Assembly: GCA_017527905.1 (NCBI GenBank) | Contig: JAFXPK010000051.1 | Coordinates: forward strand, 16,388-80,387 | DNA length: 64,000 bases | Source of the DNA: Paludibacteraceae bacterium | GTDB lineage: Bacteria; Bacteroidota; Bacteroidia; Bacteroidales; Paludibacteraceae | Direction: 5' to 3' | Notes under the pieces: model-generated | What the model was told of the DNA's origin: nothing | The model's input: the letters and a program-made list of their open reading frames with translations, nothing else | Databases searched by the model: none | Made by a program: the position numbers and the translations under genes | Shown: positions 19,038 through 45,628 of the stretch, piece by piece | Numbering within the stretch: position 1 is the first letter of the stretch | Layout of the letters: every line of letters starts with the position of its first letter

Positions 19038-19045
19038 CAAAGATA
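19038..19045 (-). promoter_or_regulatory. -7 box TATCTTTG (minus strand)
   Basis: caaagata lies 18 nt upstream of the ATG at 19020. Confidence 0.4.
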
Positions 19046-19050
19046 GCAAT

Positions 19051-19230
19051 AAGAATTAAGAATTAAGAATTAAGAGTTAAGAGTTTTTGAATCGTTGATT
19101 CGACATGGTAGGGACAAATAACATTCATCCTTTCCCCAATTAAGAATTAAAGCTAGTTCGACGTAGTCATTTTTGAAACGTTGCTCGACTGATTCTAAAT
19201 TTTTAACTCTTAATTTTTAACTTTTAATTC
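19051..19230. repeat. MITE/REP-like intergenic element, locus B (short variant)
   Basis: The left end is aagaattaagaattaagaattaagagttaagag and the right end is ctcttaatttttaacttttaattc. The two ends form imperfect terminal inverted repeats built from TTAAGAA-like heptamers. Internally, agttcgacgtagtcatttttgaaacgtt matches the 28-bp unit seen at 26746-27218. Confidence 0.6.
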
Positions 19231-19239
19231 AAAAACCAT

Positions 19240-19247
19240 TATCTTTG
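19240..19247 (+). promoter_or_regulatory. -7 box TATCTTTG
   Basis: It lies 36 nt upstream of the ATG at 19283. Confidence 0.5.
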
Positions 19248-19282
19248 CGTCATAATAACATACTTGTTTAATTTGCACCATC

Positions 19283-19873
19283 ATGTGGAAAGATTTCTTA
19301 TTTTTCTCGAAAGGAGAACGGAACGGGCTATTGGTTTTAGCCTGCTTGATACTACTAATGTTCGCTGTAAACTTCTGCATCCCCTCCCAAGCGACGATGC
19401 CAAGCGAAGTGGAACAAATCAAAGAACAGACAGAAAGCCTATTGGCGGAGGAAAACGACACGTCACTTTCCTTCCTCAGAGAGCCGCACCGACGCTGGGC
19501 GGACACAGGGGACAAACGTCCCCAACAATACCACGCGAAACAAAGGCATGAGCCCACCCATACCAAACAAGGACGCCCCCAAAAGGAGGGAGGGAAAACA
19601 TTCGCCCCGCAATCCCCCAAAAACAGGGAATACGAAAAGCTGAGAATCGAACTGAACAGCGCGGATACCACAACGCTGAAGCAACTTCGGGGAATAGGCA
19701 GCAAACTCTCCCTGCGAATCGTGAAATACAGGAAGAAAATCGGAGGATTCACCCACAAGGAGCAACTGAAGAATATCTACGGATTATCGGAAGAAACTTA
19801 CCAAAACATCTTGCCCCACGTATGGGTGGACACCACCGCCAGAAACACGGAAGCACCATCCGAGAGTGAGTAG
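19283..19873 (+). CDS. ComEA-like helix-hairpin-helix DNA-binding protein
   Basis: There is an N-terminal TM segment. The C-terminal region LNSADTTTLKQLRGIGSKLSLRIVKYRKKIGGFTHKEQLKNIYGLSEETYQNI is a tandem HhH typical of ComEA. Confidence 0.75.
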   Translation: MWKDFLFFSKGERNGLLVLACLILLMFAVNFCIPSQATMPSEVEQIKEQTESLLAEENDTSLSFLREPHRRWADTGDKRPQQYHAKQRHEPTHTKQGRPQKEGGKTFAPQSPKNREYEKLRIELNSADTTTLKQLRGIGSKLSLRIVKYRKKIGGFTHKEQLKNIYGLSEETYQNILPHVWVDTTARNTEAPSESE

Positions 19874-19889
19874 GGAAACCGGTCAGGGA

Positions 19890-21239
19890 TCAACGCTTGC
19901 TTTTGCGCCACTTCTCAATGTTCTCCTCGAACTTCTTCACCTTCTTGGCACTTTTGTTCGCACGGAACCAATCGGAGACACGGATTCTTTCCGAAATGTC
20001 CGTGCCTTCGTCGATCAGGCGCCTGGAATCTTCCGTCTTCACAATTTTCACCCTATCGTACAACTGCAAGCCAGCATCAAAGGTGGAGAGGGAGAGCGTA
20101 TCCCCCGAAAAGGTAATCCGTTGAAAATAGCGGCTGTCCGTGCCCCATTTCGCCACATCGCCATGGAACTGGAGCATGTAATCCTTTCTGGAGCAATAGG
20201 ACACCAGACGGAGCGGTTCCGTCATTCCCTTGCCTGAAGAAGTATCCACGTTGAAGCGGGCATACCCATGCTCATGGCCTTGCAGCACGAGGTCCACACC
20301 CTTCTCGCAGACCAAATCGTCGAAGAACTGCTTGACGACCCAATTGTTCATGGAACTCTTAATGGAACGGATCGGATGGTGGAGCACCACGATTTTCCAC
20401 TTCTCCTTACTTGCGGAGAGTTCCTTCTCGAGCCACATCCGCTGCGACCAAAGGCGCCAGAAATCCTTGTTGGAATCCAACAGGAAGAAACGGGCATCGC
20501 CCCGCTTGAAGGAGAAAAGCGCATTGTCGTCCGTAGCCTCAAGGTCATAGTAAGGGAAGACCAGCGGGAAACGTTCCTCCAACGTACGCGTAACGCCTTT
20601 CAGATACTCATGGTTACCCGGCACGGAGACGATCGGGTAAGTGTAGGCGTAAGAAGAGAGCGAAGCGAAAACCTTCCCCCAATACTTATCCATCGGCCGC
20701 TCGATCAAGTCGCCGCCAAACAATAGAAACGAAGCATCCGCATTGTGCGCCATGATGTTCGGAAGCAGGGAGTCGAAGGCGTTATCGTCCACCTCATCCT
20801 GCACGTCACCGAAATAGAGGAAAGAGTAATCATCCGATGCGGGTGGCATGTGGAACTGCATCCAAGCCGTCGTGTCTTGTCCGACACGGATCCGGTAACG
20901 GTACACGCCATCCGCCTTCAGGGAATCCAACAAGACCGAGAAGTAGGCGGCGATACCCGCCCGTGAGCGGAAAGGGACGCTCATCGTCTCATACACAAGC
21001 GTATCGTGCCCGAGCGTGTCGCACAGATCCAGCCAACCCGGTTGACGCACAGAGTCGCATTGCCATGAGACATAACGGGATGATTCCGACGGGCCGACCG
21101 TCAGAAGAACTCTCGCAGGATGATGTTGGATGTCATAACCTGGCTCAGGCGGATTGCCGAACCACACATCCCACCGCTTGTAACAAAACAGCGCGATGGC
21201 GATGAACAAAACCGCCAAGACCCATTTTTTCTTCGACAT
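19890..21239 (-). CDS. Calcineurin-like metallophosphoesterase (purple acid phosphatase-like), secreted or membrane-anchored
   Basis: Metallophosphoesterase motifs are present: FLYFGDVQD, FGGDLIERP, VPGNHEY, VLHHP and LQGHEHGY. There is an N-terminal hydrophobic anchor. Confidence 0.8.
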   Translation of the reverse strand: MSKKKWVLAVLFIAIALFCYKRWDVWFGNPPEPGYDIQHHPARVLLTVGPSESSRYVSWQCDSVRQPGWLDLCDTLGHDTLVYETMSVPFRSRAGIAAYFSVLLDSLKADGVYRYRIRVGQDTTAWMQFHMPPASDDYSFLYFGDVQDEVDDNAFDSLLPNIMAHNADASFLLFGGDLIERPMDKYWGKVFASLSSYAYTYPIVSVPGNHEYLKGVTRTLEERFPLVFPYYDLEATDDNALFSFKRGDARFFLLDSNKDFWRLWSQRMWLEKELSASKEKWKIVVLHHPIRSIKSSMNNWVVKQFFDDLVCEKGVDLVLQGHEHGYARFNVDTSSGKGMTEPLRLVSYCSRKDYMLQFHGDVAKWGTDSRYFQRITFSGDTLSLSTFDAGLQLYDRVKIVKTEDSRRLIDEGTDISERIRVSDWFRANKSAKKVKKFEENIEKWRKSKR

Positions 21240-21240
21240 A

Positions 21241-22632
21241 TTAATAGCCTAAAATCTTCAACATGGACTTATAACTCTGTTCCTTCGCGAACAGTTTAGT
21301 ATAGTATTCACCATTCTCATCCACATCGACCACCACCATCTTAGGGGCAGGCAACAAGCAGTGTTGGATACCGCCGTAACCACTCAACGCCTCTTGGTAG
21401 GCGCCCATATGGAAGAAACCGATGAACTGTTCCCTACCCTGTACCATCTTAGGGAGGAAGATCGCATTGGAGTGAACCTCAGCGTTGTAGAAATCCTCGC
21501 TATCGCACGTCAGGCCGCCCAAGTGCACCCGTTCGTACTCCTGGTCCCAGTTATTGATGGCCAAGAACGGGAAGCGCTGGTTCAAGCCCCAGGTGTCGGG
21601 CATCGTATTGATGAAGGAGCTGTCGATCATGTCCCACAACTCACGGTCGTTCTGTTGCTTCTGGTTGACGATGGAATAGAGCATCGCACCACTCTCGCCC
21701 ACCGTGTAGGAACCGAACTCAGTGAAGATGCGAGGCTCCGGCACGCCCTGTTGCGCACAAGTGTTTTTGATTTGGGCGACGATCTCCTCCGCCATGTACT
21801 CATAATCGTAGGTAAAATCCATGTGGGCTTGGATAGGGAAACCACCGCCGATGTTCAGGCTATCGAGTTCCGGGCAAATCTTGCGCAACTCGCAATAGAG
21901 GTTGATTCCCTTGCTCAACTCGTTCCAATAGTAGGAGGTGTCCTTGATACCCGTGTTCACGAAGAAGTGCAACATTTTCAGTTTCACCTGCTTATTATTC
22001 TTTATCTTCTCCTTATAATATGGAAGGATATCCTTGAAGCGGATGCCCAAGCGGGAAGTATAGAAATCGAACTTAGGTTCCTCCTCTGTGGCGATACGGA
22101 TACCGACGTTCAACGGCTTATCAAAGCCATCGAGCAACATATCCAGTTCGTCCTTATTGTCCAGAATCGGAATCACATTTGTGAAACCCTTGTTGATGAA
22201 GTCACGTATATTGTCTATATATTGAGGTATTTTAAATCCGTTGCAAATGATGAACTTGTCCTTTTTAAGATGTCCGGATTCCTCCAAACACTCCAACAAG
22301 TTCACGTCGTATGCGGAAGAGATTTCCACATTCACGTCATGTTTCAGCACCTCCTCCATCACGAAGGAGAAGTGGGAACTCTTCGTGCAGAAGCAATAGT
22401 TGTAGTCCGCCTGATAGTCCACCTTCGCCATGGCCACGTTGAAAAGACGCCTCACACGCTGGATGTTCATGGCTATCTTCGGTAGGTACGAGATCCGCAA
22501 AGGGGTACCATACTGTTTGATGATGTCCATCAAAGGAACATTGAACCAATAAAGCTCATTGTCATTGACGCTAAACTCCTCGTTAGGAAACTCGAACGAC
22601 TGCTCGATCAAATCAACGTACTTGTTTTTCAT
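21241..22632 (-). CDS. Type III PLP-dependent decarboxylase, short arginine decarboxylase-like
   Basis: The 463-aa product has an N-terminus (YGTPLRISYLPKI...YCFCTKSSHFSFV) that resembles the roughly 460-aa arginine decarboxylases annotated in Bacteroidota. Only 1 nt separates it from the downstream gene, so the two are probably an operon. Confidence 0.7.
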   Translation of the reverse strand: MKNKYVDLIEQSFEFPNEEFSVNDNELYWFNVPLMDIIKQYGTPLRISYLPKIAMNIQRVRRLFNVAMAKVDYQADYNYCFCTKSSHFSFVMEEVLKHDVNVEISSAYDVNLLECLEESGHLKKDKFIICNGFKIPQYIDNIRDFINKGFTNVIPILDNKDELDMLLDGFDKPLNVGIRIATEEEPKFDFYTSRLGIRFKDILPYYKEKIKNNKQVKLKMLHFFVNTGIKDTSYYWNELSKGINLYCELRKICPELDSLNIGGGFPIQAHMDFTYDYEYMAEEIVAQIKNTCAQQGVPEPRIFTEFGSYTVGESGAMLYSIVNQKQQNDRELWDMIDSSFINTMPDTWGLNQRFPFLAINNWDQEYERVHLGGLTCDSEDFYNAEVHSNAIFLPKMVQGREQFIGFFHMGAYQEALSGYGGIQHCLLPAPKMVVVDVDENGEYYTKLFAKEQSYKSMLKILGY

Positions 22633-22733
22633 TTCCAGGAAATTAAGTAAACCAAATTAAATAAATTCACCCAAAGAAATAAATCCAACTCACTCGGATT
22701 GAACAAAAATTTACAATCCGAAGAATTCGGATG

Positions 22734-22741
22734 CAAATCTA
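22734..22741 (-). promoter_or_regulatory. -7 box TAGATTTG (minus strand)
   Basis: caaatcta lies about 100 nt upstream of the ATG at 22632. The leader contains alternative hairpins (see findings). Confidence 0.45.
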
Positions 22742-22809
22742 TATATAAATCAAACACATTATTCAATTTTGGCAAAAAACTTTTTGTCGGGTTTAGACGC
22801 ACGCATAAT

Positions 22810-23020
22810 CGACCACGTCGAACTGACGTTTCATAAATCCCTAGTGTCGCCCCGTTGGGGCTCATGTTGCGTCACGTGCCCCATTGCACAGGGGTTTACA
22901 CCCCTGCCTGGGGGATGCCGCCCTTCCAGGGCTAAACTACATCGAGCTACCGTTTCAAAATTGACTTCGTCGAACTGACGTTTCATAATTGACTTCGTCG
23001 AACTAACGTTTCAAAATTCA
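22810..23020. repeat. MITE/REP-like intergenic element, locus A
   Basis: It contains cgtcgaactgacgtttcataa-type 28-bp units at both ends. The GC-rich core carries the hairpins gccccgttggggc and caggggtttacacccctg. The element is in reverse orientation relative to the copies at 26731-27235. Confidence 0.7.
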
Positions 23021-23206
23021 TAATTGCCTATCGTCTACGGTCCAAAACCCATTTTTTTCAAAAAAGAGTTGGTAAACTCACATATATTTACGAAAATTGC
23101 AAATGGATTCGATTGTCAGAACAAAAATGTGTCTAACGCATTCTTTTTCAGGTTGAAAGCATCGGTTCTAAAAGTTAAGGAGACATAAACCATTTCTAAT
23201 ATCATT

Positions 23207-24799
23207 ATGATGAGAATAAAAACTATTATTGCATTGTCGGCCCTCTCCATCACGGCGGCCTATGCGCAAGACAGCATCGTCTTGGACGATTTCGAGAGTG
23301 ACGCTAAAGGCTGGGAGGACGTCAGCGGCGCCTTCAGTGAGATTGTAAGCAATCCCTCGCCGGACGACGTGAACAGTTCGTCCAAAGTGCTCAAATGCAC
23401 CAGACCCGTCGGCACGGACAACTGGGCGGGCGTGATCCTCAGGGGAGTCTATTCCCTCAACATCGGTTCCAGCGACAACGACTACTCCTATGCGACGGTG
23501 AAGTTCCTCAAACAGACCCAAGGAGACGTCGCCTTCAAGTTGGAGTCCGGTCCGGGCGATAACTACGAATACAACACCGCCTACCTCGGCGGCAACGGAT
23601 GGACCACCGTCACATTCGACCTGAAGAGCGCACCGAAAGGCACCTACAAAGACTTCTTCGTCATGGTGGACCGTGGTGACCTGCAGCGCGACGCCGTCGT
23701 CTACATCGACGAGGTCACGCTCCTCAAGAAACTCGACCAACAAAGTTCCTCGACCTTCGACCCGAACTCGCAAAAAGGAACGGGCGAAGTGGACGGCTAC
23801 AAACTCGTTTGGCAGGAGCTGTTCGATGACGGCAAACTCAGCAATGTGTGGAACATCGAGGAGGGTTATGCCTACAACAACGAATTGCAATACTACAAAA
23901 GGAACAACATCGAGGTAGGAAAAGATGAGAAGGGGAACGGCTGCCTTATCATTACTGCCAAGAAAGAACAATCCAACGGTATTACATGCTCATCGGGAAG
24001 ATTGAACACCAGCGGCAAGATGAAGTTCTGCCACGGCAAGGTGGAGGCAAGCATCCGTTTGCCTAAGACCGCCAACGGACTCTGGCCAGCATTCTGGATG
24101 ATGGGTGACGAAACAAGCAGATGGCCTGCGAACGGAGAGATTGATATCATGGAGATGGGCAACTCCGAGGCTTTCAACATGGGCACACAAGACCGCTACT
24201 TCAACGGAGCTTGTCACTGGGGACCTTCGCAGAGCGCCCACGAGATGAGCACCCAGAGCGTCACTTGGGACTACTCCCTGCAGGACGGGGAATTCCACCT
24301 CTACACGCTCTACTGGGACGAACAAAGGCTCGTCATGTACGTCGACCAAGACCGCTACCCTAACGCACGGCCTTATTTTCAACTGAACATCGCGGACAGG
24401 GGGTCGGACAGAAGTGCCGGGACCTATTTCCACCACGAGTTCCACCTCCTCTTCAACTTGGCGATCGGAGGTGATTTCACGAGAATCACAGACATCAATC
24501 AAATCAGTGCCCTGCAAAACGGAGAGGCGAAGATGTACGTCAACTACGTCAAGGTATACCAAAAAGGCATCCAAGGGGAGAGCTACACAGGACCTGTCAT
24601 GGAGTTCACAGGCATGGAGGAGTTGTGCGCCGCACAGAAGGGCCTCGACGAATTGGCAGGATCCATCTACAACATAAACGGTCTGCTCGTACGGACATTC
24701 GATGCGGGTGAATCATCCGTCATCGAGAACCTCAAGGAAGGCCTCTACATCATCAGATTGGAGAACAACGAGTCCTTCAAAATCATCAAGAGGAAATAA
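23207..24799 (+). CDS. GH16 beta-glucanase (laminarinase/licheninase-like) with N-terminal CBM-like domain and T9SS C-terminal sorting domain
   Basis: The signal peptide is MMRIKTIIALSALSITAAYAQ. The GH16 catalytic motif is WPANGEIDIMEM (ExDxxE), together with GLWPAFWMMG. The C-terminus is IYNINGLLVRTFDAGESSVIENLKEGLYIIRLENNESFKIIKRK. Confidence 0.85.
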   Translation: MMRIKTIIALSALSITAAYAQDSIVLDDFESDAKGWEDVSGAFSEIVSNPSPDDVNSSSKVLKCTRPVGTDNWAGVILRGVYSLNIGSSDNDYSYATVKFLKQTQGDVAFKLESGPGDNYEYNTAYLGGNGWTTVTFDLKSAPKGTYKDFFVMVDRGDLQRDAVVYIDEVTLLKKLDQQSSSTFDPNSQKGTGEVDGYKLVWQELFDDGKLSNVWNIEEGYAYNNELQYYKRNNIEVGKDEKGNGCLIITAKKEQSNGITCSSGRLNTSGKMKFCHGKVEASIRLPKTANGLWPAFWMMGDETSRWPANGEIDIMEMGNSEAFNMGTQDRYFNGACHWGPSQSAHEMSTQSVTWDYSLQDGEFHLYTLYWDEQRLVMYVDQDRYPNARPYFQLNIADRGSDRSAGTYFHHEFHLLFNLAIGGDFTRITDINQISALQNGEAKMYVNYVKVYQKGIQGESYTGPVMEFTGMEELCAAQKGLDELAGSIYNINGLLVRTFDAGESSVIENLKEGLYIIRLENNESFKIIKRK

Positions 24800-24818
24800 T
24801 CGTTCCTACGCATAACAG

Positions 24819-24853
24819 AATGGCTGGCGAATCATCTCGTCAGCCATTTTTTT
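24819..24853 (+). terminator. Rho-independent terminator after the GH16 gene
   Basis: The stem is aatggctg / cagccatt, followed by tttttt. Confidence 0.6.
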
Positions 24854-24928
24854 GCGCTGCGACAACGCACACGCACATCCCTTGGGGAAGACGCAAATAT
24901 CCTTCAGGCGAGGAAGGCACAAGAGCCA

Positions 24929-24966
24929 TAAAAACAAAGGAGGGGAAACCAGACGTCTCCCCTCCT
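24929..24966 (-). terminator. Rho-independent terminator after the fumarase gene
   Basis: A 9-bp stem (aggagggga / tcccctcct) is followed on the minus strand by ttgttttta. Confidence 0.6.
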
Positions 24967-24991
24967 CCACTATCGTAATATCAGAGCCTCA

Positions 24992-26635
24992 TCATCTCTT
25001 GCAGATGGCGTCCCAAGGCTTCAGTTGTTTAAAGAAATCGTTACCCTTGTCGTCCACCAGGATGAAGGCAGGGAAGTCCTCCACTTCGATCTTCCAGATG
25101 GCTTCCATACCCAATTCAGGGTACTCCACGCATTCGATGCTCTTGATGTTGTTTTGTGCCAGGATAGCGGCCGGTCCACCGATGGAGCCCAAATAGAATC
25201 CGCCATGCTTCTTGCAGGCGTCCGTCACGGCTTGAGAACGGTTACCCTTCGCCAACATGATCATAGATCCTCCGTGGTCTTGGAACTCGTCCACGTATGG
25301 ATCCATACGTCCCGCCGTGGTAGGTCCCATACTTCCGCAAGGCATTCCTTCCGGAGTCTTGGCCGGACCAGCGTAGTAGATCGGATGGTCTTTCAGGTAC
25401 TGAGGCATACCCTCGCCAGCGTCCAAGCGAGCCTTGATCTTCGCATGGGCGATGTCTCGTCCCACGATGATTGTACCATTCAGGGAGAGGCGGGTGGATA
25501 CAGGATATTTGGAGAGTTCCTTCAGGATCTCCTTCATCGGTTGGTTCAAGTTGATCTTCACAGCGTCGCCCTCACCTGCTTGGCGGAGTTCCTCAGGGAT
25601 CAATTCGTATGGTTTATCGTCCATCTTCTCGATCCAGATACCGTCCTTGTTGATTTTGCACTTGATGTTTCTGTCCGCGGAACAGCTCACGCCCAAGCCG
25701 ATAGGACAGCTGGCGCCGTGGCGAGGCAAACGTACCACACGTACGTCGTGAGCCATGTATTTACCGCCGAACTGGGCACCCAAACCAATCTTGTGCGCCT
25801 CCTCCAGGAGTTGTTTCTCCAATTCGATGTCACGGAAAGCGCGACCCGTCTCGTCGCCCGAAGTAGGGAGGCTGTCGTAGTAGTGGGTAGAAGCCAGCTT
25901 AACCGTCAGCAGGTTCTTCTCCGCCGAAGTACCACCGATAACGATGGCGATGTGGTAAGGAGGGCAAGCCGCCGTACCCAATGATTTCATCTTCTCCACC
26001 AAGAAAGGAACCAGCGTGCCAGGGTTCTGGATACGCGCTTTGGTCTCTTGGTAGAGATAAGTCTTGTTGGCTGAGCCACCACCTTTGGTGACCATCAGGA
26101 AGCGGTACTCCATGCCTTCCGTAGCCTCGATATCGATCTGTGCTGGCAGGTTACATTTCGTGTTCACCTCGTCGTACATGTTCAACGGAGCGTTCTGTGA
26201 GTAGCGGAGGTTCTCCTCTGTGTAAGTCTTGAAGACACCTTTCGCCAACGCCTCTTCGTCGCAGTAGCCGGTCCAAACCTGCTGGCCCTTCTCTCCGTGG
26301 ATGATGGCGGTACCCGTGTCCTGGCAGAGAGGCAATTTGCCCTTAGCGGCCACTTCCGCGTTGCGCAGGAAGGTGAGGGCCACATACTTGTCGTTGTCGC
26401 TCGCCTCAGGGTCGCTCAATATCTTAGCCACTTGCAGGTTGTGGGAACGTCTTAACAGGAAGGAAACATCGCGGAACGCGGCGTTGGCCATCTTGGTCAA
26501 TCCCTCTTTCTCAACTTTAAGGATAGGTTTTCCTTCGAAATCACCGACAGAGACATAGTCTTTCGTCAGCAGATAGTACTCCGTGTCGTCTTTTCCTAAT
26601 TGGAACATCTGAGCATACTTAAATTCTACAGCCAT
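24992..26635 (-). CDS. fumB: Class I (Fe-S) fumarate hydratase
   Basis: The product is 547 aa from the ATG at 26635 ([11 protein letters not shown]...). It shows full-length similarity to class I fumarases, for example [32 protein letters not shown] and [16 protein letters not shown]. The extra 22 codons of the track ORF (from 26701) look non-native. Confidence 0.9.
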
Positions 26636-26730
26636 ATTTCTGTTGTTTAATGTTTTATGTGTTTCTATGATTATGCTACTAAGTAACAACTTTTTTTTCA
26701 AATATCGTTGATGTTTCGAGGAGAATTTAG

Positions 26731-27235
26731 ATAATTAAGAATTTTGAAACGTTAGTTCGACGAAGTCAATTATGAAACGTTAGTTCGACGTAGTCAATTA
26801 TGAAACGTTAGTTCGACGTAGTCAATTAGAATGCAGGGGATGGACGATATGCCTGAAGAACGGCTCATCCCAAAGCCCCAACGGGGCGATATCCTCCAGG
26901 CAGGGGTGTTAACCCCTGTGCAAAAGGGCACGTGATGCGACATGAGCCCCAACGGGGCGACACAAGGAAATTAAGAATTATGAATTAAGAATTATGAAAC
27001 GTCAGTTCGACGAAGTCAATTTTGAAACGTTAGTTCGACGAAATCAATTAGAATGCAGGGGATGGACGATATGCCTGAAGAACGGCTCATCCCAAAGCCC
27101 CAACGGGGCGACAACCTCCAGGCAGGGGTGTTAACCCCTGTGCGAAAGGGCACGTGATGCGACATGAGCCCCAACGGGGCGACACAAGGGAAACGTCAGT
27201 TCGACGAATTCAATTTTTGAAACGCAACATGTTCG
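26731..27235. repeat. MITE/REP-like composite element, locus C: two tandem copies (period 222 bp) with 28-bp tandem units
   Basis: 28-bp units of the form gaaacgttagttcgacgWagtcaattat start at 26746, 26774, 26802, 26996, 27024 and 27190. The 139-nt GC-rich core at 26829-26967 is repeated at 27051-27189 with only 3 mismatches. Confidence 0.8.
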
Positions 27236-27244
27236 GTTAACCGC

Positions 27245-27285
27245 AAAAAAAAGCCTCAATTGACATCGTATCGTCCATTGAGGCT
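27245..27285 (-). terminator. Rho-independent terminator downstream of the small-peptide ORFs
   Basis: The stem is agcctcaat / attgaggct, followed on the minus strand by tttttttt. Confidence 0.6.
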
Positions 27286-27362
27286 ATTGTCGTACGCTGT
27301 ACGGCCGCTTTCGCTGTTTCCGTCGTTTCTTATTCTGTTCCATTTCCGTACTTATTAAAGGG

Positions 27363-27449
27363 TTATTTACTCATGGAAGTAATCTCCATATACACTTTCA
27401 CTCCAAAAACTGCGGCGATCGAGATCGTCAAAAATGTTGCTACTATCAT
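27363..27449 (-). CDS. Candidate 28-aa hydrophobic peptide
   Basis: Manual translation gives MIVATFLTISIAAVFGVKVYMEITSMSK. It is a paralog of the peptide at 27501-27581 and lies between a -7 box and a terminator. Confidence 0.4.
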   Translation of the reverse strand: MIVATFLTISIAAVFGVKVYMEITSMSK

Positions 27450-27500
27450 AATCGTACGTTTTTTAATGGTTAATCACTATGTTTCGTTTACTCATTTTTT

Positions 27501-27581
27501 TCAGCCGTTGATGGTGTCGAATGTCATGACTACCTTTGCTACGAAGCAAGCTGCGATCGATAATACTAATGCTGTTACCAT
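27501..27581 (-). CDS. Candidate 26-aa hydrophobic peptide
   Basis: Manual translation gives MVTALVLSIAACFVAKVVMTFDTING. It shares SIAA.F..KV.M with the downstream peptide. Confidence 0.4.
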   Translation of the reverse strand: MVTALVLSIAACFVAKVVMTFDTING

Positions 27582-27643
27582 AATTCTGTAATTTTATGCG
27601 TTATTTATTCTTTATTTATGTAATTCCTCATTGAATCACATTG

Positions 27644-27651
27644 CAAATATA
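27644..27651 (-). promoter_or_regulatory. -7 box TATATTTG (minus strand) for the small-peptide transcript
   Basis: caaatata lies 63 nt upstream of the ATG at 27581. Confidence 0.5.
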
Positions 27652-27824
27652 GGCATTATATTTTATTCTGCAAATAAATATACACTCTTTGGGGTTAAAA
27701 TATTTTAATTTATGCATAATAAGGGTTATAATTGCATATTTTAGGAATAATTATGTAAATAAATATACAGTGTTAATAATGTATAAATATTAACGAAAAC
27801 TGTTGTTCCATCCATTTTTATTCC

Positions 27825-27832
27825 TATATTTG
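27825..27832 (+). promoter_or_regulatory. -7 box TATATTTG for the YtxH-like gene
   Basis: The box ends 5 nt before the ATG at 27838. This argues for the ATG at 27862 as the start, or for a leaderless mRNA. Confidence 0.45.
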
Positions 27833-27861
27833 TTTACATGAACATTAAAACTATATGCGCT

Positions 27862-28092
27862 ATGGGAAATTTTGTGAAAGGTGCGGTCATTGGTGCCGCT
27901 GCAGTTTTGCTCGGTAATTATTTGTTGAATACCGAAGAGGGCAAGGAGACTTGCAAGAAGATTAAGGATAAGGTAAAAAAGACGGCCGACGAATGGAAGG
28001 ATAAATTGGAGAAGGAACTGAATCAGTTCGATGGCAAGGATTCCACCTCCACCTCCGTCACAAAGCAGGTTGAGGACGTCATGGAAGAATAG
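27862..28092 (+). CDS. YtxH domain protein
   Basis: MGNFVKGAVIGAAAVLLGNYLLNTEEGKETCKKIKDKVKK is a typical YtxH N-terminus followed by a charged helix. The track start at 27838 is the alternative. Confidence 0.65.
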   Translation: MGNFVKGAVIGAAAVLLGNYLLNTEEGKETCKKIKDKVKKTADEWKDKLEKELNQFDGKDSTSTSVTKQVEDVMEE

Positions 28093-28123
28093 ACGAAGGC
28101 GTTAGCCGTCATGAAGAAACGAA

Positions 28124-28165
28124 GAGGGGGCGTATCCATTCAGGATATGCCCCCTCCTTTATTTG
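28124..28165 (+). terminator. Rho-independent terminator after the YtxH-like gene
   Basis: The stem is gagggggcgtatcc / ggatatgccccctc (one G-T pair), followed by ctttatttg. Confidence 0.55.
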
Positions 28166-28207
28166 TCGTCGATTGGTGGATGCGAATGTTATTCGCCCAC
28201 AACCATA

Positions 28208-28398
28208 AAGAATTAACGTTTCATAAATCCCTCGTGTCGCCCCTTCGGGGCTACGCCACATCACACGCACCATCACACAGGGGTTGACACCCCTGCCTAT
28301 GATATAATACCCCTTCGGGGCTTGGTTTACGCGCATCGTCTATGGACACGCACGCTCCCAAAAACTCTTAATTCTTAACTCTTAATTCTTAATTCTTC
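28208..28398. repeat. MITE/REP-like intergenic element, locus D
   Basis: The left end is aagaattaacgtttcataaa. The core has gtgtcgccccttcggggct, caggggttgacacccctg and a second ccccttcgggg. The right end is ctcttaattcttaactcttaattcttaattctt, which overlaps the stop codon of the GH9 gene. Confidence 0.7.
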
Positions 28399-30248
28399 AC
28401 GAGTTGTTTCGCGAAGCTCTCCTCCCCCGCGACGACGCGCACGAGGTAGATGCCCTTCTCCAGGCCGCCGCAGTCCAGACCGCAGTAGGTTTGACCGGAG
28501 ACTGCCTTGCTGAGACGGATGCATCCGAGGGCGTCGATCACCTCCACCGTCACTTGCTCATTCAAGAGCTTGCCGAAGTGGACGTTCAGACGGTCTTGTA
28601 CCGGGTTCGGGCTCAAGACGCAGCTTATCTCCTCACGCTCGAAGGCCTCCACCGATGTGAACACCTGCGGCACAGGGTTGATCTTGGAGTTAATGTAGCC
28701 CAAAGCACCGACCAGACCCGCATTGTAGTCGACGCCGCCCTCGGTTCCCTCATAACCGCTGACCTCATCCGTGTATTCGCCATCATTCAACGAGCCACCA
28801 ACCAAATAACCCAGTTGGGAGAACTTGTAGTTGTTGTCGATGCTTGGCAACTTATCCTTTTCGAGAGCCAGCTTCCTGATATCGGTTCTATACACGTTCC
28901 GATGGTGGGGCTTGCTAGGGTATTTGTCTCCAAATCCCACGATGTAGGAGAAGCTCCGTCCGTTGTGGCCCATGATATAGTCGATAGAGGCCGAGGTGTA
29001 CGGATTGATTGTTTCCGCACCAGTCAATTTATCGTACAAAGCATACACGAAAGCCTGGTTGGCAGGATAACGGAGTACGCCCCAATCGTCTGTTTGTTTG
29101 TTTAACAGGAAGCCTGAAGTAGGCTTATACATGGTGTGGACGTAGTATCCTAATATTTCGAGAGCCTTTGCCCCATAGGTTGAGGCATCTCCCAACGACG
29201 CTACAGCGTAGGCGGCCAAATCTTCCCTGTGGTCGTAGCAAAGGGAGAAGTTGTAGTCATACTGGCTCATATCGTTCATCCAGCCACAGTTCTCCTCCGC
29301 CTTCCTCAGGTACTCCGGATCATTCGTCGTTTTATACAGTTCCACGTACATGACGACCATATCATGGACATAGCGGTCACCCACATGATAAAAGTTCTGG
29401 TCTTTCCCGTCCGCCACCAGCGGTTCACCCCACGAAGTGCCTTTCTCCGTTGTTTCCACGAACTCGCAGGCCACCTTAGCTTTCTCTAGGCAAGCGTCGG
29501 CGTAATCCTTATCGTATGGGGCATACACGCGCGCCATCACAGCAAGTGCGGAGGCTGCTTGCGATGCCATGGCCGTGGCCTTCCCCGTCGCTTTCATGAT
29601 CATGCGCGGACCGTCCGCATCCCCACCGATAGCGTTCGGGACACCGGATCTGACCGATGAGGTGCACCACACCTTATGGTCCCAATAACCATCACCCTTC
29701 TGGTAATAGAAGGTCTGGTTGTCCCGTACCGCCTTCAACATGAAGTCCGTGGCATATTTCACCTCATTCAGGATATCAGGGATGCCGTCCGGTTTGCCTT
29801 GCTTCCCCTCCCACGTGTAGTCATCCGAATCGATGTAACCGTGGTAATCCTCCGAGTAGAAGTCAGGATAACCCTCCGGGAAGGATGTATATCCCAACAA
29901 CAACATGTAGGCGGAGAAATAGAAGGTCTGGCCGAAGAGCACATAGTCTCCACAGTCGAACCATCCGCCCGTCAAATCATAATCACCGTCGGCGTCATTG
30001 AGGAAAGACTTCCCCTGCACGAATTTACTGCTGTCGAATTGGACGTCCTCGCTCACTTCGCCTGGCACATGAGTCGCAATGAGCCAATTCACACCCTCAC
30101 CCATTCTTTGTGCCCCGTAAAACCGTGTTGTCATCCACAACGCCTTTTGATACTGTTCCTTTTCGAATGTTAATTCACTTTGTGCGAACGCACCTACACA
30201 CATAACACTACATAAGAAACCCACTACAGAATGCTTTAGTTTGTTCAT
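28389..30248 (-). CDS. GH9 endoglucanase-like glycoside hydrolase with T9SS C-terminal sorting domain (copy A)
   Basis: GH9 motifs present: YQKALWMTTRFYGAQRMG, DLTGGWFDCGDYVLFG, SYIVGFGDKYPSKPHHR (this fits the GH9 signature as I recall it) and YTDEVSGYEGTEGGVDYNAGLVGAL. The C-terminal SPNPVQDRLNVHF...GIYLVRVVAGEESFAKQLVKN resembles a T9SS CTD. Confidence 0.88.
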   Translation of the reverse strand: MNKLKHSVVGFLCSVMCVGAFAQSELTFEKEQYQKALWMTTRFYGAQRMGEGVNWLIATHVPGEVSEDVQFDSSKFVQGKSFLNDADGDYDLTGGWFDCGDYVLFGQTFYFSAYMLLLGYTSFPEGYPDFYSEDYHGYIDSDDYTWEGKQGKPDGIPDILNEVKYATDFMLKAVRDNQTFYYQKGDGYWDHKVWCTSSVRSGVPNAIGGDADGPRMIMKATGKATAMASQAASALAVMARVYAPYDKDYADACLEKAKVACEFVETTEKGTSWGEPLVADGKDQNFYHVGDRYVHDMVVMYVELYKTTNDPEYLRKAEENCGWMNDMSQYDYNFSLCYDHREDLAAYAVASLGDASTYGAKALEILGYYVHTMYKPTSGFLLNKQTDDWGVLRYPANQAFVYALYDKLTGAETINPYTSASIDYIMGHNGRSFSYIVGFGDKYPSKPHHRNVYRTDIRKLALEKDKLPSIDNNYKFSQLGYLVGGSLNDGEYTDEVSGYEGTEGGVDYNAGLVGALGYINSKINPVPQVFTSVEAFEREEISCVLSPNPVQDRLNVHFGKLLNEQVTVEVIDALGCIRLSKAVSGQTYCGLDCGGLEKGIYLVRVVAGEESFAKQLVKN

Positions 30249-30343
30249 ACTTACTGATTAATTAAATTAAATGTTTACGTTAATTATCCCCCATTTGGTG
30301 TCCTACTGATATACCCTAAATAAAGTAGACAACCATATACATA

Positions 30344-30351
30344 CAAATATA
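30344..30351 (-). promoter_or_regulatory. -7 box TATATTTG (minus strand)
   Basis: caaatata lies 96 nt upstream of the ATG at 30248. Confidence 0.45.
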
Positions 30352-30462
30352 CAATAATTTATTGGCTCACGCAATAACCTTGCGCATAATTTGACATGCG
30401 TCAATTTACGAATCTCAAAGAGGCAAGTGCCAAACGAAGCCAACCTAGTGCCTGGACAAACA

Positions 30463-30502
30463 TTGGGGGCATACGAATCACAGAAGATTCGTACGCCCCC
30501 AA
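30463..30502 (-). terminator. Hairpin terminator after GH9 copy B
   Basis: A 17-bp stem with one mismatch (ttgggggcatacgaatc / gattcgtacgcccccaa). The T-tract on the minus strand is weak. Confidence 0.5.
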
Positions 30503-30593
30503 CAATCAGTCACACAATTAAAAATCAGATGCTAAGGATTAAGAACACATTCGACATCTAACCTTCAAAAGATAACATCCAACGTCTAAAAAA

Positions 30594-32468
30594 CTATTTC
30601 TTGATGAACTGATTCGTGAAAGTCTCGCTGCCTGCAATGACACGCACGATATAGATGCCCTTCTCCAAGCCGCCGCAGTCCAGGCCACAGTAGGATTGTC
30701 CGGACACCACCTTGCTGAGGCGGACGCATCCGAGGGCGTCGATCACCTCCACCGTCACTTGCTCATTCAAGAGCTTGCCGAAGTGGACGTTCAGACGGTC
30801 TTGTACCGGGTTCGGACTCAAGACACAGCTAATCTCCTCACGTTCGAAGGTCTCCACCGAGGTCTCTTCTTGTGGGATAGGGTTGAGTTTAGCGTTGATG
30901 TATCCCAATGCGCCAACCAATCCGGCATTGTAGTCGATACCACCCTCGGTACCTGAATAACTTTTAACATCATCAGAATAATTACCGTCATCCAATGAAC
31001 CTCCAACCAGATATCCCAATTGGTAAAATTTGTTGTTTTTATCTAATGCAGGTAATTTTGCCGCCTCCTCTTTAGTATTCAAATCATTGATATCCGACCT
31101 GTACGCATTTCTATGGTGAGGCCAGACTGGATATTTGTCACCAAACCCGACAACGTAAGAAAAGTTCTGTCCATTACGACCCAAAATATACTCTATTGAA
31201 GCAATGGTATATGGATTGAATGTCTCCACACCCATTAACTTGTCGTACAAAGCATACACGAAAGCCTGATTAGCCGGGTAACGAAGCGCACCCCACGAGT
31301 CACCTTTTTTGTTCAGCATATAACCCGAAGTGGGTTTATACATGGAATTAACGTAGAATCCCAAAATTTCCAACGCTTTTGCTCCGTAAGTTGACTCATC
31401 ACCCAAAGAAGCCACAGCGTAGGCTGCCAAGTCTTCTCGATGGTCATAGCAAAGCGTATAATCATAGTTGTACTCATCCTTATCGTCCATCCACGAGCAA
31501 TTCTCCTCTGTCTTTCTCAGATATTCTGGGTCTTTGGTAGTTTTGTAGAGTTCCACATACATGGTGACCATATCGTGAACATAACGGTCTCCCACGCCGT
31601 AGTATCCTCCTATATACATACCCCACATACTTTGTCCACGCGGTTCCCCAACCGTAGTTCCTTTTTCCGTTTTTTCCACAAACTCGCAGGCCACTTTCGC
31701 TTTTTCAAGACATGCGGCCGCATAGTCAGGATCGTATTTCGCATACACGCGCGCCATTACGGCGAGTGCAGCACTGGCTTGTGAGGCCATGGCAGTGGCT
31801 TTGCCTGACACCTTGTAAATCGGACGCGGGCCATCCGACTCTCCTCCCAAACTTGCCGGAATGGCGGATTTGACCGTTGAGGTACACCACACCTTATGGT
31901 CCTGATCACCGTGTCCCTTCTGGAAGTAGAAGGTTTGGTTGTCACGTACGGCTTTCATTATATAGTCCGTGGCATATTTCACCTCGTTCAGGATATCAGG
32001 AATACCATCCGGCTCCCCTTTTTTCCCTTCCCATGTATAATCATCCGCATCAATGTAGCCGTGATAGTCCTCTGAATAGAAGTCCGGATATCCCTCAGGG
32101 AAAGCGGAATATCCCAACAACAACATATAGGCGGAATAGAAGAATGTTTGTCCAAAAAGCACAAAGTCACCGCAGTCGAACCAGCCACCCGTCAAGTCAT
32201 AATCGCCGTCGGCATCCTTGAGATAGGATTTACCCTTCACGAACTTACTGCGATCGAACTGGATTTCGTTACTTACGTCGTTCGCCTCATGCGTCGCCAC
32301 GAGCCAGTTCACACCCTCGCCCATACGTTGCGCACCATAGAAACGTGTGGTCATCCACAGCGCCTTTTGGTACTGCTCATTGCTAAACGATAAGTCCACT
32401 TGTGCATACGCACTGCTACACATAATGCTGCATAGAAAACCCAATACTGAATACTTTAACTTACTCAT
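30594..32468 (-). CDS. GH9 endoglucanase-like glycoside hydrolase with T9SS C-terminal sorting domain (copy B)
   Basis: It has the same motif set as copy A: FYGAQRMG, GGWFDCGDFVLFG, SYVVGFGDKYPVWPHHR and YSGTEGGIDYNAGLVGAL. The CTD is nearly identical to that of copy A. Confidence 0.88.
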   Translation of the reverse strand: MSKLKYSVLGFLCSIMCSSAYAQVDLSFSNEQYQKALWMTTRFYGAQRMGEGVNWLVATHEANDVSNEIQFDRSKFVKGKSYLKDADGDYDLTGGWFDCGDFVLFGQTFFYSAYMLLLGYSAFPEGYPDFYSEDYHGYIDADDYTWEGKKGEPDGIPDILNEVKYATDYIMKAVRDNQTFYFQKGHGDQDHKVWCTSTVKSAIPASLGGESDGPRPIYKVSGKATAMASQASAALAVMARVYAKYDPDYAAACLEKAKVACEFVEKTEKGTTVGEPRGQSMWGMYIGGYYGVGDRYVHDMVTMYVELYKTTKDPEYLRKTEENCSWMDDKDEYNYDYTLCYDHREDLAAYAVASLGDESTYGAKALEILGFYVNSMYKPTSGYMLNKKGDSWGALRYPANQAFVYALYDKLMGVETFNPYTIASIEYILGRNGQNFSYVVGFGDKYPVWPHHRNAYRSDINDLNTKEEAAKLPALDKNNKFYQLGYLVGGSLDDGNYSDDVKSYSGTEGGIDYNAGLVGALGYINAKLNPIPQEETSVETFEREEISCVLSPNPVQDRLNVHFGKLLNEQVTVEVIDALGCVRLSKVVSGQSYCGLDCGGLEKGIYIVRVIAGSETFTNQFIKK

Positions 32469-32545
32469 TTTGTCTGTGTTTTAACATGATTACTTACTTA
32501 GAAACATTTATTTGTCATTTATACCTTTGGGGATAAATAGGCATG

Positions 32546-32553
32546 GCAAATAT
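32546..32553 (-). promoter_or_regulatory. -7 box TATATTTG (minus strand)
   Basis: caaatata lies 78 nt upstream of the ATG at 32468. It sits inside a block shared with 33626-33650. Confidence 0.5.
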
Positions 32554-32640
32554 ACGATTTTTTATTAGTTGTTGTCACTCCCAGGTGTTTTTTTAATGAA
32601 TCGTATGGGGCGGGATTATTGTTCCATGTATGTTGAGAAT

Positions 32641-32679
32641 AGAAAACCCCTACGGGGTATTTCCCCGTAGGGGTTTTCT
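32641..32679. terminator. Strong palindromic hairpin after the 32737-33555 gene
   Basis: A perfect 17-bp stem: agaaaacccctacgggg / ccccgtaggggttttct. Confidence 0.6.
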
Positions 32680-32736
32680 AATGCGTTCATCGTCCGTCGT
32701 TATCATCGCAGGGACGATGTACAATACCCATCGTCT

Positions 32737-33555
32737 CTACCTCTTCAACGCTTTATTCTCCTCCCTCAACTGCTCAACCTCCTTCTGCAGGCGGATCAGG
32801 TGAAGTGTGAGTTCCTCCACTTTTTCGAGCAGAAGATTGCTCATCTCAGAAACGTTCATGCCGTTCTCCTTGAACTCTGATGCGGAAGGCACACCCGGAA
32901 GGTGCTTGTTACTCTTCACGAAAGCCTCCACCTCGTCCAACGATTTCAGGTCGTACCCCTCCTCGAACACATAGTCGGCGGCGTTGTCCATCTCCACATT
33001 GATCTCCTTGGCGGTGATACCTTTGGTGTTCACCTCGTCCGAATTCACCTTGTTTGTGTTGACCTCAGCCACACGGATCTCCTCTTTGCAGACAATCTTG
33101 CCATCTACGTTCATGACACCGGTTTCCTCATTATTGAACTCACCGAATTTGAAGTTGTATTCAGAGGCATTGAAGCTCATGCCTTTATAAGCCGATCCAA
33201 TCGCATTCACTGAGGTGAATTCGACACCAGTATCAACGTGTGCTGAATCAGAAGAAAAACCCATTATAAAAACAACTGCACCTTGATGAGGTTGAGAATA
33301 CATCACAAAGGAAGGGGAAACCGATTCTCCTGTGCGATTCGGCATCATAGTAATACTACGTTCTACTGTTAAGTCACCTATATCACCACGATTGCATAAG
33401 GCACTTTCAGTAGTAACAGAACTGGCCTTCACATATTCTGTCTCAACTAAATTCTGTGACAAAACCGTGTCGGCTTCAACAAATGATGCGTGAGCGGCGA
33501 CGAAGGAGAAAGACGTCATAAGTGACGCCAATAAGTATTTGAGCAATGATTTCAT
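32737..33555 (-). CDS. Secreted protein of unknown function with C-terminal coiled coil
   Basis: The signal peptide is MKSLLKYLLASLMTSFSFVAAHA. The C-terminal region is DYVFEEGYDLKSLDEVEAFVKSNKHLPGVPSASEFKENGMNVSEMSNLLLEKVEELTLHLIRLQKEVEQLREENKALKR. I recall this as a recurrent C-terminal module in Bacteroidota proteins but cannot name it. Confidence 0.6.
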   Translation of the reverse strand: MKSLLKYLLASLMTSFSFVAAHASFVEADTVLSQNLVETEYVKASSVTTESALCNRGDIGDLTVERSITMMPNRTGESVSPSFVMYSQPHQGAVVFIMGFSSDSAHVDTGVEFTSVNAIGSAYKGMSFNASEYNFKFGEFNNEETGVMNVDGKIVCKEEIRVAEVNTNKVNSDEVNTKGITAKEINVEMDNAADYVFEEGYDLKSLDEVEAFVKSNKHLPGVPSASEFKENGMNVSEMSNLLLEKVEELTLHLIRLQKEVEQLREENKALKR

Positions 33556-33636
33556 ATAATAAAAACATTAACAGTTACACATTTAATGCCATGTTCCATT
33601 CCTTGGCTCAAGATGACCCTCTGGTAAATAGGCATG

Positions 33637-33644
33637 CAAATATA
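33637..33644 (-). promoter_or_regulatory. -7 box TATATTTG (minus strand)
   Basis: caaatata lies 82 nt upstream of the ATG at 33555. Confidence 0.5.
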
Positions 33645-33730
33645 CATCTATTTGCTATTTATTTGCGTTATTATTGTGTTTTTTGAAATATTTTACACAG
33701 ATTTTTATTCCATCATGGTTGGTGACGCCC

Positions 33731-33768
33731 CAAAACGAAGCGTGCGCATCACCCTATGACACGCACGC
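33731..33768 (-). terminator. Hairpin terminator after the OM barrel gene
   Basis: The stem is gcgtgcg / cgcacgc, followed on the minus strand by ttcgttttgg. Confidence 0.45.
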
Positions 33769-33790
33769 CGCATTTCTTGTCTGAGGAACA

Positions 33791-36334: not shown

Positions 36335-36356
36335 ATTCTATTTTTTTTAGTTGCGT

Positions 36357-38492: not shown

Positions 38493-38507
38493 TTCCGTTT
38501 CAAAATT

Positions 38508-38882
38508 TTATAGCAAATCCGGTATTTCTTTTATCTCGGCATCCTCCCACAGCGTCTCAAGGCTGTAGAACTCCCTTATTTCCGGGAGGAACACGTGGAG
38601 GATAACCTCCCCATAGTCGATGGCGATCCACTGCGCATTGTTGTAGCCGTCGATAGCGAAAGGCTTCACCTTAATCTGTTCGCGCACATAATCCTTCACC
38701 TCATCCGCGATGGAGCACACATGGGTATTGGAATTGCCTTGGCAAATCACAAAGTACCGGAAAACATAGTTCTCCAGGTTAGACATGTCCACCACCGTGA
38801 TTTTGGTTCCTTTCTTTTCCTGAATGCCTTCTACAATCTTATTGACTAATAATTCCGTCTCGTCTAAAATCTTTTTCGCCAT
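38508..38882 (-). CDS. rsfS: Ribosomal silencing factor RsfS (Iojap family)
   Basis: The 124-aa product contains YFVICQGNSNTHVCSIADEV...WIAIDYGEVILHVF, typical of RsfS. It sits in the conserved position upstream of ftsH. Confidence 0.88.
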   Translation of the reverse strand: MAKKILDETELLVNKIVEGIQEKKGTKITVVDMSNLENYVFRYFVICQGNSNTHVCSIADEVKDYVREQIKVKPFAIDGYNNAQWIAIDYGEVILHVFLPEIREFYSLETLWEDAEIKEIPDLL

Positions 38883-38885
38883 TGG

Positions 38886-40226: not shown

Positions 40227-40256
40227 TAGTCACTTATTTCCATTAATAATAATTTG

Positions 40257-40264
40257 CAAATCTA
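40257..40264 (-). promoter_or_regulatory. -7 box TAGATTTG (minus strand)
   Basis: caaatcta lies 31 nt upstream of the argH ATG. Confidence 0.5.
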
Positions 40265-40407
40265 CATAAAAAACAGCGGATAATCAAAAAGATTTTTCAC
40301 CTCCCACGAACCCAAGTTCGCCAACAGGTCCCATCCCTAGGAATCACTATTACGCATGCGGCTTCCCACGACGGATGAGAGGGTTCCTCCACTTGCAGGA
40401 AGCCATG

Positions 40408-40459
40408 GAAAAACAAATATCCATAGGATCGCACCGCGAAAGCGCAATCCTATGGATAT
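40408..40459 (-). terminator. Rho-independent terminator after the 40482-42527 gene
   Basis: A 13-bp stem (atatccataggat / atcctatggatat) is followed on the minus strand by ttgttttt. Confidence 0.7.
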
Positions 40460-40481
40460 ACCTAAATCTTCAAAAAACTAC

Positions 40482-42527: not shown

Positions 42528-42576
42528 ATTTGGCAATTATATTAGTTATCAATCTATTTTCCTATCTCTAAGCAGT

Positions 42577-45596: not shown

Positions 45597-45628
45597 TATT
45601 TGTCGAGACGATATATTGGAACCACATC

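Follow-up and report, generated by a model that had tools for sequence, protein, structure and literature searches.

REP-type hairpin repeats within heptamer and 28-bp arrays of a rumen Paludibacteraceae bacterium, probably cognate to an IS200-like Y1/HUH enzyme of its relatives

A stretch of 64,000 nucleotides of a Paludibacteraceae bacterium (assembly GCA_017527905.1, contig JAFXPK010000051.1, positions 16,388 to 80,387 of the forward strand), hereafter the window, carries four intergenic loci at which heptamer arrays, 28-bp units and GC-rich hairpin cores are variously combined. An earlier reading of the letters alone, made without database searches and referred to here as the sequence-only reading, had described them as a family of structured elements resembling MITEs (miniature transposable elements with inverted repeats) or repetitive extragenic palindromes (REPs). 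Direct inspection of the sequence between 18.8 and 28.7 kb confirmed the four loci, their intergenic position and the occurrence of the elements in both orientations. The loci, designated C, A, B and D in their order along the window, have different contexts: C and A lie at divergent promoters, B upstream of a fumarase gene and D between convergent gene ends. Four cores are found at three of them, in minus orientation at A and D and in plus orientation in the two copies of B (B1 and B2), which constitute a 222-bp tandem duplication (26735-27215) with 96% identity; C is devoid of a core. None of the open reading frames (ORFs) 22629-22865, 22769-22978 and 28109-28336, considered spurious by the sequence-only reading, figures among the genes called in L123, a near-identical contig. 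At D, the stop codon of the GH9 gene is supplied by the heptamer array of the element itself.

These repeats are strongly enriched in a limited part of the window. The 17-nt head of the 28-bp unit (GAAACGTYAGTTCGACG) is present in nine exact copies (0 mismatches) for 0.04 expected, and the double heptamer TTAAGAATTAAGA, with two mismatches or fewer, in 18 copies for 1.7 expected, 16 of which fall inside the four loci. When the five elements were compared by BLAST with the entire 64 kb, the copies were confined to positions 19040-28400, and a palindrome scan of the window revealed no further pair of small and large GC hairpins besides the element cores. The four loci are gathered in 15% of the window, for which the chance under uniform placement, estimated by hand, is about 0.003. 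Periods of 7, 14, 28 and 222 nt were recovered in the loci with Tandem Repeats Finder (TRF) and a repeat search.

With the units taken as the reference for orientation, a full element consists of an array of GAATTWW heptamers, one to three 28-nt units (each of 4 x 7 nt), an optional segment named X in B and X2 in D, and the core, after which a unit or heptamers occur once more. The core is itself composed of a small hairpin (h1), a 12-nt linker, a large hairpin of the form CAGGGG-N6-CCCCTG (h2), about 27 nt and a second small hairpin (h3) followed by GACAC, the small hairpins having the form AGCCC(C)-N3-5-(G)GGGC (Table 1). As is typical of REPs, these GC-rich palindromes are short, imperfect and extragenic, and no genes are called over them in L123. 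The heptamers form tandem 7-nt direct repeats at gene boundaries, in a number that varies between strains. The sequence-only reading had attributed the same parts to all loci, with inverted heptamer ends and two gcccc hairpins per core, and this description proved accurate only in part. Heptamer arrays, units and core are indeed assembled in A and B, C having no GC-rich core and D only a fragment of unit; the core of A contains one gcccc-aac-ggggc hairpin and one gccc-tggaa-gggc variant; and the heptamers are inverted at the ends of C and, weakly, of D, those of A and B being direct repeats located 5' of the units.

The same modules are common in related rumen genomes. The exact 26-nt unit was retrieved in 69 rumen metagenome stretches, with 6-10 copies per long contig (10 in 376 kb, 6 in 904 kb), and long congeneric contigs also carry many cores. 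The order of the modules is fixed in these relatives (7-U-(X)-h1-H2-h3, 7 standing for the heptamers and U for the units), and in module maps of the related rumen contigs the unit and h2 share a strand wherever a cluster contains the two. A unit ends 22-47 nt upstream of 28 of the 43 cores, the remainder abutting heptamers, and the beginning of many related arrays coincides with the stop codon of the gene upstream (TGA-GAATT..., TAG-AGAATT...). Neither the 28-bp units nor the heptamers are structured; both are lineage-specific and vary in copy number between strains. Two other readings of the arrays were considered and rejected: they are not CRISPR arrays, since the 28-bp units abut without spacers, and neither the unit arrays nor locus C qualify as structured RNA, since their folding z-scores are positive (+0.53 for the B1 arm, and +0.98 for C, which folds no better than its shuffles).

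A genome collection was scanned with the pattern CAGGGGN6CCCCTG-N15-40-GCCCCN3GGGGCG, corresponding to h2...h3, which revealed at least 119 loci, mostly in Planctomycetota and also in Alcaligenaceae (Proteobacteria), Acidobacteriota, Chlorobiaceae, Nitrospirae and Desulfatiglandales. Seven among the matches listed (at least 119) originate from metagenome-assembled genomes (MAGs) of rumen Bacteroidales or Paludibacteraceae. In nearly all the matches listed, h2 is preceded at exactly 12 nt by a small hairpin, and the presence of this h1 at a fixed distance, although the pattern did not ask for it, argues against chance matches. Many of them are arranged as inverted doublets or head-to-tail chains, and chains sharing hairpins, the h3 of one unit being the h1 of the next, are common in related contigs.

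The sequence-only reading had named no family for the elements. The first two hairpins of the core correspond to the orphan Rfam motif Acido-Lenti-1 (RF01687), with an 8-bp large hairpin, a 12-nt linker and a 5-bp small hairpin. No Rfam family matches the window at gathering threshold; at permissive thresholds, RF01687 gives full-length matches to A (29.9 bits, E 0.0011, 22888-22933) and D (26.6 bits), both short of the gathering score (37), and no match to B1 or B2. The gathering score is passed by 20 copies from Planctomycetota, Acidobacteriota, Alcaligenaceae, Chlorobiaceae, Nitrospirae and Bacteroidales, with 37-58 bits in these relatives. The window copies, which have the architecture of the family and lack its score, are accordingly placed as its putative members by architecture together with a sub-threshold covariance-model score. 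A match to a known annotated element, which the sequence-only reading would have counted against itself, is therefore half realised, the core being a sub-threshold relative of RF01687. The core has a third hairpin besides the two of the Rfam motif, and the foot of the window copies is CCAGG-CAGGGG instead of the GTAGG-CAGGGG or ATAGC-CAGGGG of relatives. A second core subtype, present in related contigs (...ATAGCC-TAGGGCAACGCCCTAGG), is still closer to the Rfam consensus. Acido-Lenti-1 was listed as a probable small RNA (sRNA) in two phyla ('RNA? y'; Weinberg et al. 2010, PMC2864571); its Rfam type is sRNA, and its function is still called unknown in two 2026 preprints. The present evidence favours instead a DNA repeat belonging to a transposase.

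Regarding the subtypes, an orthologous site of two related contigs (L203 2758 and L204 4811) has the unit, X2 and h1 in common and differs in the large hairpin (CAGGGG type vs CCTAGGG type), which suggests an exchange between core subfamilies at h1.

That stems are conserved and loops differ had been taken by the sequence-only reading as the mark of a selected structure. Loops do differ within the window, the four cores of which display no compensatory change in their stems; the covariation comes from other genomes. It was evaluated on an alignment (A1) of 150 copies from many phyla, in which h1 was not part of the selecting pattern. All five pairs of h1 (5/5) display double changes among G-C, C-G, A-U and U-A, with 93.5% of the cells paired, and 33 switches from C-G to U-A are seen at the innermost free pair of h2. 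For the 13 pairs as a whole, the covariation score was reached by none of 500 shuffles, and sliding the partners lowers the paired fraction to 29-58%. The h2 variants CAGGGG/CCCCTG, CACGGG/CCCGTG and CATGGG/CCCATG found in the loci with a Y1 gene, described below, form a compensatory series. On the element-plus strand of A1, G-T wobbles exceed A-C mismatches about sixfold (29 vs 5), and this excess on one strand points to that strand as the one that folds. It is the opposite of the strand modelled in RF01687. Folded as single-stranded DNA, the cores of the window form the expected hairpins, three of them in A, with z-scores of about -1.9 to -2.3 (A -1.88, B1 -2.10, D -1.96). The cores were rejected as intrinsic terminators, since none of their hairpins is followed by a T-run; one good terminator alone is present, at 28124-28156, outside D.

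In relatives, the repeat is associated with the gene of a small Y1/HUH transposase. At three loci (L007, L066 and L078), inverted copies about 500 bp apart enclose an ORF of 150 aa recognised by the Pfam model Y1_Tnp with 82-92 bits, and tblastn located a Y1 gene adjoining the repeat in 11 loci among the matches listed (at least 119). In a Paludibacteraceae MAG from yak rumen (L119), the Y1 gene (7436-6993, minus strand) lies between inverted cores, the upstream one being preceded by heptamers and a unit resembling the 28-bp one. The encoded protein has 1226 homologues, many of them in Bacteroidales and some named 'REP element-mobilizing transposase RayT' by JGI. An independent sample was composed of the contigs of ten homologues of this protein, chosen by exact protein identity and without any DNA pattern: almost all their Y1 genes have h1-h2-h3 upstream and an inverted unit downstream, and in these protein-fetched loci the RF01687 matches are antisense to the Y1 gene on its upstream side and sense on its downstream side. 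An alignment of 17 Y1 proteins reveals a length of about 150 aa and the motifs DH[VI]H, WQ and Y---Q--HH, which are the signature of TnpA-Y1 subclass 1.2 in Table 1 of Quentin, Siguier, Chandler and Fichant (2018; PMC6006769). The conserved C-terminal tail and the occurrence in Bacteroidetes are further points in common with that subclass, from which the present enzymes depart by the inverted hairpin units bracketing the gene in many relatives, by the dispersed copies of these units and by their additional presence in Planctomycetota and Nitrospirae. The NCBIfam IS200 model gives them 48-67 bits for a cut-off of 55. The literature search found no paper linking Acido-Lenti-1, Y1 subclass 1.2 and a REP-type repeat.

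On these grounds we consider it probable, at roughly three chances in four, that the cores are REP-type repeats, cognate to an IS200-like Y1/HUH enzyme of subclass 1.2 and set within heptamer/unit minisatellites, the whole forming a mosaic comparable to the bacterial interspersed mosaic elements (BIMEs). The 'REP-like' half of the earlier designation is thus retained, as the hairpin-repeat family flanks Y1/HUH genes as inverted pairs and its stems covary, and the elements are a variant of selfish or structural DNA of a known type rather than a new system. The repeat of an uncultured rumen bacterium is thereby placed in a defined class, that of REP/BIME-like DNA tied to a Y1/HUH enzyme. The cores would have spread as single-stranded hairpin DNA by means of the Y1 enzyme, in keeping with their inverted bracketing of the gene and with the knowledge of Y1 enzymes of the HUH type, and would either have inserted into the heptamer/unit arrays or have moved together with them. 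The copies seen today would be old and vertically inherited, since the same sites are occupied in relatives at 85-93% identity, and would now change for the most part through slippage during replication, unequal crossing-over and exchange among copies.

Several observations weigh against this interpretation. The cognate transposase that the sequence-only reading proposed to look for would be, in relatives, the Y1 enzyme, and tblastn identified no Y1 gene in the 64-kb window; none was found either by tblastn in 500 kb of metagenome loci bearing the unit. Conversely, the exact 28-bp unit occurs in none of the recovered Y1 loci, including those of the ten protein-fetched homologues. The enzyme is, to judge from model scores and motifs, nearer to IS200 than to the canonical REP-associated tyrosine transposases (RAYTs): the NCBIfam model REP_Tyr_transpos (NF047646) yields 23-27 bits for a cut-off of 80, which leaves it outside the TnpA_REP class, and subclass 1.2 itself is recorded as REP-less in PMC6006769. 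The cores of the window are below the Rfam threshold and have a CAGG foot, not GTAG or ATAG. In related rumen genomes, about 50 clusters contain heptamers and units without a core for about 23 with both, so that core-less modules are about twice as frequent as core-bearing ones; this argues for a separate origin of the arrays and is at odds with the single type of element that the sequence-only reading had in mind. Lastly, no empty site or fresh insertion was encountered, all four loci being occupied in every syntenic relative, so that mobility is deduced and not observed.

Three other explanations were weighed. The cores could be small structured RNA genes or cis-regulatory RNAs whose stems are selected as RNA, as the sRNA type in Rfam and the entry in PMC2864571 imply and as the strong stem covariation and the one-sided excess of G-T wobbles would also allow. 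We regard this as improbable, given that copies occur in every gene context and in both orientations, as inverted pairs around Y1 genes, inverted doublets and head-to-tail chains, that no U-tract terminator or promoter is attached to the cores, and that the strand favoured by the wobbles is not the one modelled in Rfam. That the elements in their entirety are classical MITEs, mobilised by a DDE transposase and delimited by heptamer arrays as terminal inverted repeats, is very improbable. C and D do have inverted heptamers at both ends, the elements are small and intergenic, and BrickBuilt of Porphyromonas gingivalis is a precedent for minisatellite-bearing MITEs in Bacteroidales (PMC4596501). 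In A, B and the majority of related copies, however, the heptamers are direct and one-sided; slippage makes their number vary, and the core is tied to the Y1 enzyme, no transposase with matching ends having been seen. The 'MITE' half of the earlier designation, in its usual sense, is not supported: there are no consistent terminal inverted repeats, inspection of the loci revealed no target-site duplication, and the supposed heptamer 'ends' are variable microsatellites and not transposon termini.

The 28-bp units could also be arrays of protein-binding or promoter sites (iteron-like, or outward promoters) regulating the neighbouring genes, with the REP cores as passengers. Promoter activity has been described for BrickBuilt units (PMC4596501). 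In the present arrays, each unit junction reads TTGACT-17-CATAAT on the antisense strand, matching the sigma-70 consensus at 10 of 12 positions, the junction sites of A and B point at the GH16 and fumarase genes, and element A is identical in a relative with diverged flanks. The main sigma factor of Bacteroidota recognises TTTG / TAnnTTTG, not the sigma-70 consensus; its motif is absent from the unit and the junction sites are probably irrelevant to it. Many of the heptamer-unit modules moreover begin at an upstream stop codon, where the site would read antisense, and the number of units varies freely between strains; a role as regulatory arrays therefore appears unlikely. The sigma-70-like junction sites are located at 26741-26825(-), 26977-27019(-) and 22961-23017(+), where they overlap head to tail.

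Within the interpretation as REP-type repeats of a Y1 enzyme, a more specific and tentative proposal can be made on the relationship between core and arrays. In the rumen Paludibacteraceae lineage, the cores are always co-oriented with the surrounding AT-rich GAATTWW/unit arrays. It is conceivable, if doubtful, that the arrays act as a strand-specific landing pad (a target ending in AATT) for the core moved by Y1; this would be a two-layer system in which a minisatellite seeds intergenic sites, often at stop codons, and the REP core inserts there in one orientation, the Acido-Lenti-1 'sRNA' being the DNA substrate of the enzyme in at least six phyla.

The elements resemble several known systems without coinciding with any. 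With the REP/BIME-RAYT systems (the REPtron of E. coli and REPIN-RAYT of Pseudomonas; PMC3333891, PMC3116915, PMC2817692) they share GC-rich extragenic hairpins, dispersed gene-less copies, doublets and clusters, a single Y1/HUH gene between inverted copies (here in relatives), a BIME-style mosaic with other short motifs, and sites that are probably old and vertically inherited. They differ from these by two to three hairpins spread across 46-95 nt where REPs have a single palindrome of 20-40 nt, by the class 1 enzyme of their relatives (IS200-like, subclass 1.2) in place of a class 2 TnpA_REP, by the CAGG foot of the window copies in place of GTAG, and by companion motifs consisting of heptamer and 28-bp tandem arrays. 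The ends of IS200/IS605 elements (IS608, ISDra2) likewise involve a Y1/HUH enzyme with strand-specific action and subterminal hairpins recognised as single-stranded DNA; these ends are two different hairpins on one strand, whereas inverted copies of one unit are found here, and gene-less copies far outnumber gene-bearing ones. Compared by description, BrickBuilt (PMC4596501) is also an intergenic Bacteroidales element in multiple copies per genome, with a spacer-less tandem array of variable unit number (23-nt unit, 28-nt here) between a leader and a tail. It has, however, small inverted-repeat ends and neither a REP-type hairpin core nor a link to Y1. Lastly, intergenic heptamer repeats such as TAACTGA (Beggiatoaceae, cyanobacteria and some Bacteroidetes; PMC4679880) and GGGAATC/GGGGAYT (PMC4692102) are similarly 7-nt tandem arrays at gene boundaries, stop-codon-rich, dispersed and variable in number. 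The word is here GAATTWW/TTAAGAA, and the arrays of the window occur only with unit and core modules and not throughout the intergenic space.

The comparison of strains and species provides information on the way these loci change. Strain contigs were gathered by their identical encoded YtxH protein and fall into two lineages. L123 represents the window's own strain, with identical C, A and D and one copy of B instead of two; the 222-bp duplication is also missing in L033, L187, L189 and L120-L124. In the other lineage, the elements occupy the same sites with fewer units and with h1 as gccctggaagggc; the 5' arm of B has (GAATTTT)5-9 and one to two units, vs one and a half heptamers in the window, and at D the core allele is far more diverged than its flanks and array lengths shift by 7-nt steps. 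The variation between strains thus proceeds in steps of 7 and 28 nt, with allelic cores at B and D. Other species retain part of the set: B is kept in L033, L187 and L189, and A and C in L208, where A is identical save for one unit fewer between flanks that are 83-91% identical, and C is retained with a different 45-nt middle. The all-against-all comparison of related loci gave four indels only, a single one of which, between L178 and L179, is informative: one genome has a core with a unit on each side, and the other has heptamers in its place. As no empty site was found, the insertions would be old, and the loci would now change through slippage, through unequal exchange and through core alleles being swapped. 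The sites marked by the elements, close to promoters and to stop codons, are hypervariable and differ between strains; the elements also account for breaks and collapses of short-read assemblies at such sites, for example at the 222-bp duplication.

Table 1. Positions of the modules at the four loci of the window (features of A and D are read in element orientation on the minus strand)
Feature	Position	Strand	Remarks
Locus C, core-less element	19049-19234	+	between divergent gene starts
C, TTAAGAA array	19049-19083	+	sequence, TRF
C, degenerate 28-bp units	about 19087-19112 and 19152-19199	+	sequence
C, inverted heptamer array	19200-19234		sequence, TRF
Locus A, complete element	22807-23023	-	sequence
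A, heptamers	23010-23023	-	read in element orientation
A, units	22987-23013, 22959-22985, 22807-22833	-	last one after core
A, degenerate unit	about 22936-22958	-	ahead of core
A, core	22849-22933	-	h1 22920-22933 (agccctggaagggc)
A, core h2	22888-22907	-	gcaggggtgtaaacccctgt
A, core h3	22849-22862	-	agccccaacggggc
B1, 5' arm	26735-26828	+	heptamers 26735-26748; units 26745-26771, 26773-26799, 26801-26827
B1, core	26829-26967	+	X stem-loop 26829-26873, h1 26874-26887, h2 26900-26919, h3 26945-26958, tail gacacaagg
B2, 5' arm	26971-27050	+	heptamers 26971-26998; units 26995-27021, 27023-27049
B2, core and trailing unit	27051-27215	+	X 27051-27095, h1 27096-27109, h2 27122-27141, h3 27167-27180, unit 27189-27215
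D, 3' end	28208-28229	-	unit fragment tgaaacgttaa and one inverted heptamer (locus D = 28208-28397)
D, core	28239-28359	-	X2 imperfect palindrome 28324-28359, h1 28309-28322 (agccccgaaggggt), h2 28277-28296, h3 28239-28252
D, heptamer array	28365-28397	-	overlaps TAA stop 28389-28391 of GH9 gene 28389-30248(-)

Some further observations concern the surroundings of the elements. A segment of about 17 kb of the window (28100-45090, with GH9 genes and others) is missing in L033 and L189, where the YtxH gene adjoins a homologue of window 45090-45742; the left edge of the missing segment is occupied by D, and none of the elements was seen at the right one. Synteny is also broken at 24800-24992 between strains with an identical YtxH protein, L120-L124 having a DnaG/DUF4230 block after the 3' side of the fumarase gene, at the place of the GH16 gene of the window. 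Elsewhere in the window, an array of the AAATAGT/AAATCGT type (48766-48859) matches positions 1627-1696 of L119 at 80-94% and is similar to the 'gtaaatcgtaaattgtaaat' arrays found after the second core subtype in related contigs (L163, L204, L211 and L212); it may be a further module of the mosaic vocabulary. Downstream of B2, two hydrophobic ORFs of 28 and 26 aa, 27363-27449(-) and 27501-27581(-) (MIVATFLTISIAAVFGVKVYMEITSMSK and MVTALVLSIAACFVAKVVMTFDTING), may encode small membrane peptides. Gene callers prefer to them an ORF of 72 aa on the opposite strand (27373-27591), and they are followed at about 27245-27290 by a hairpin and an A-run that read as a minus-strand terminator.

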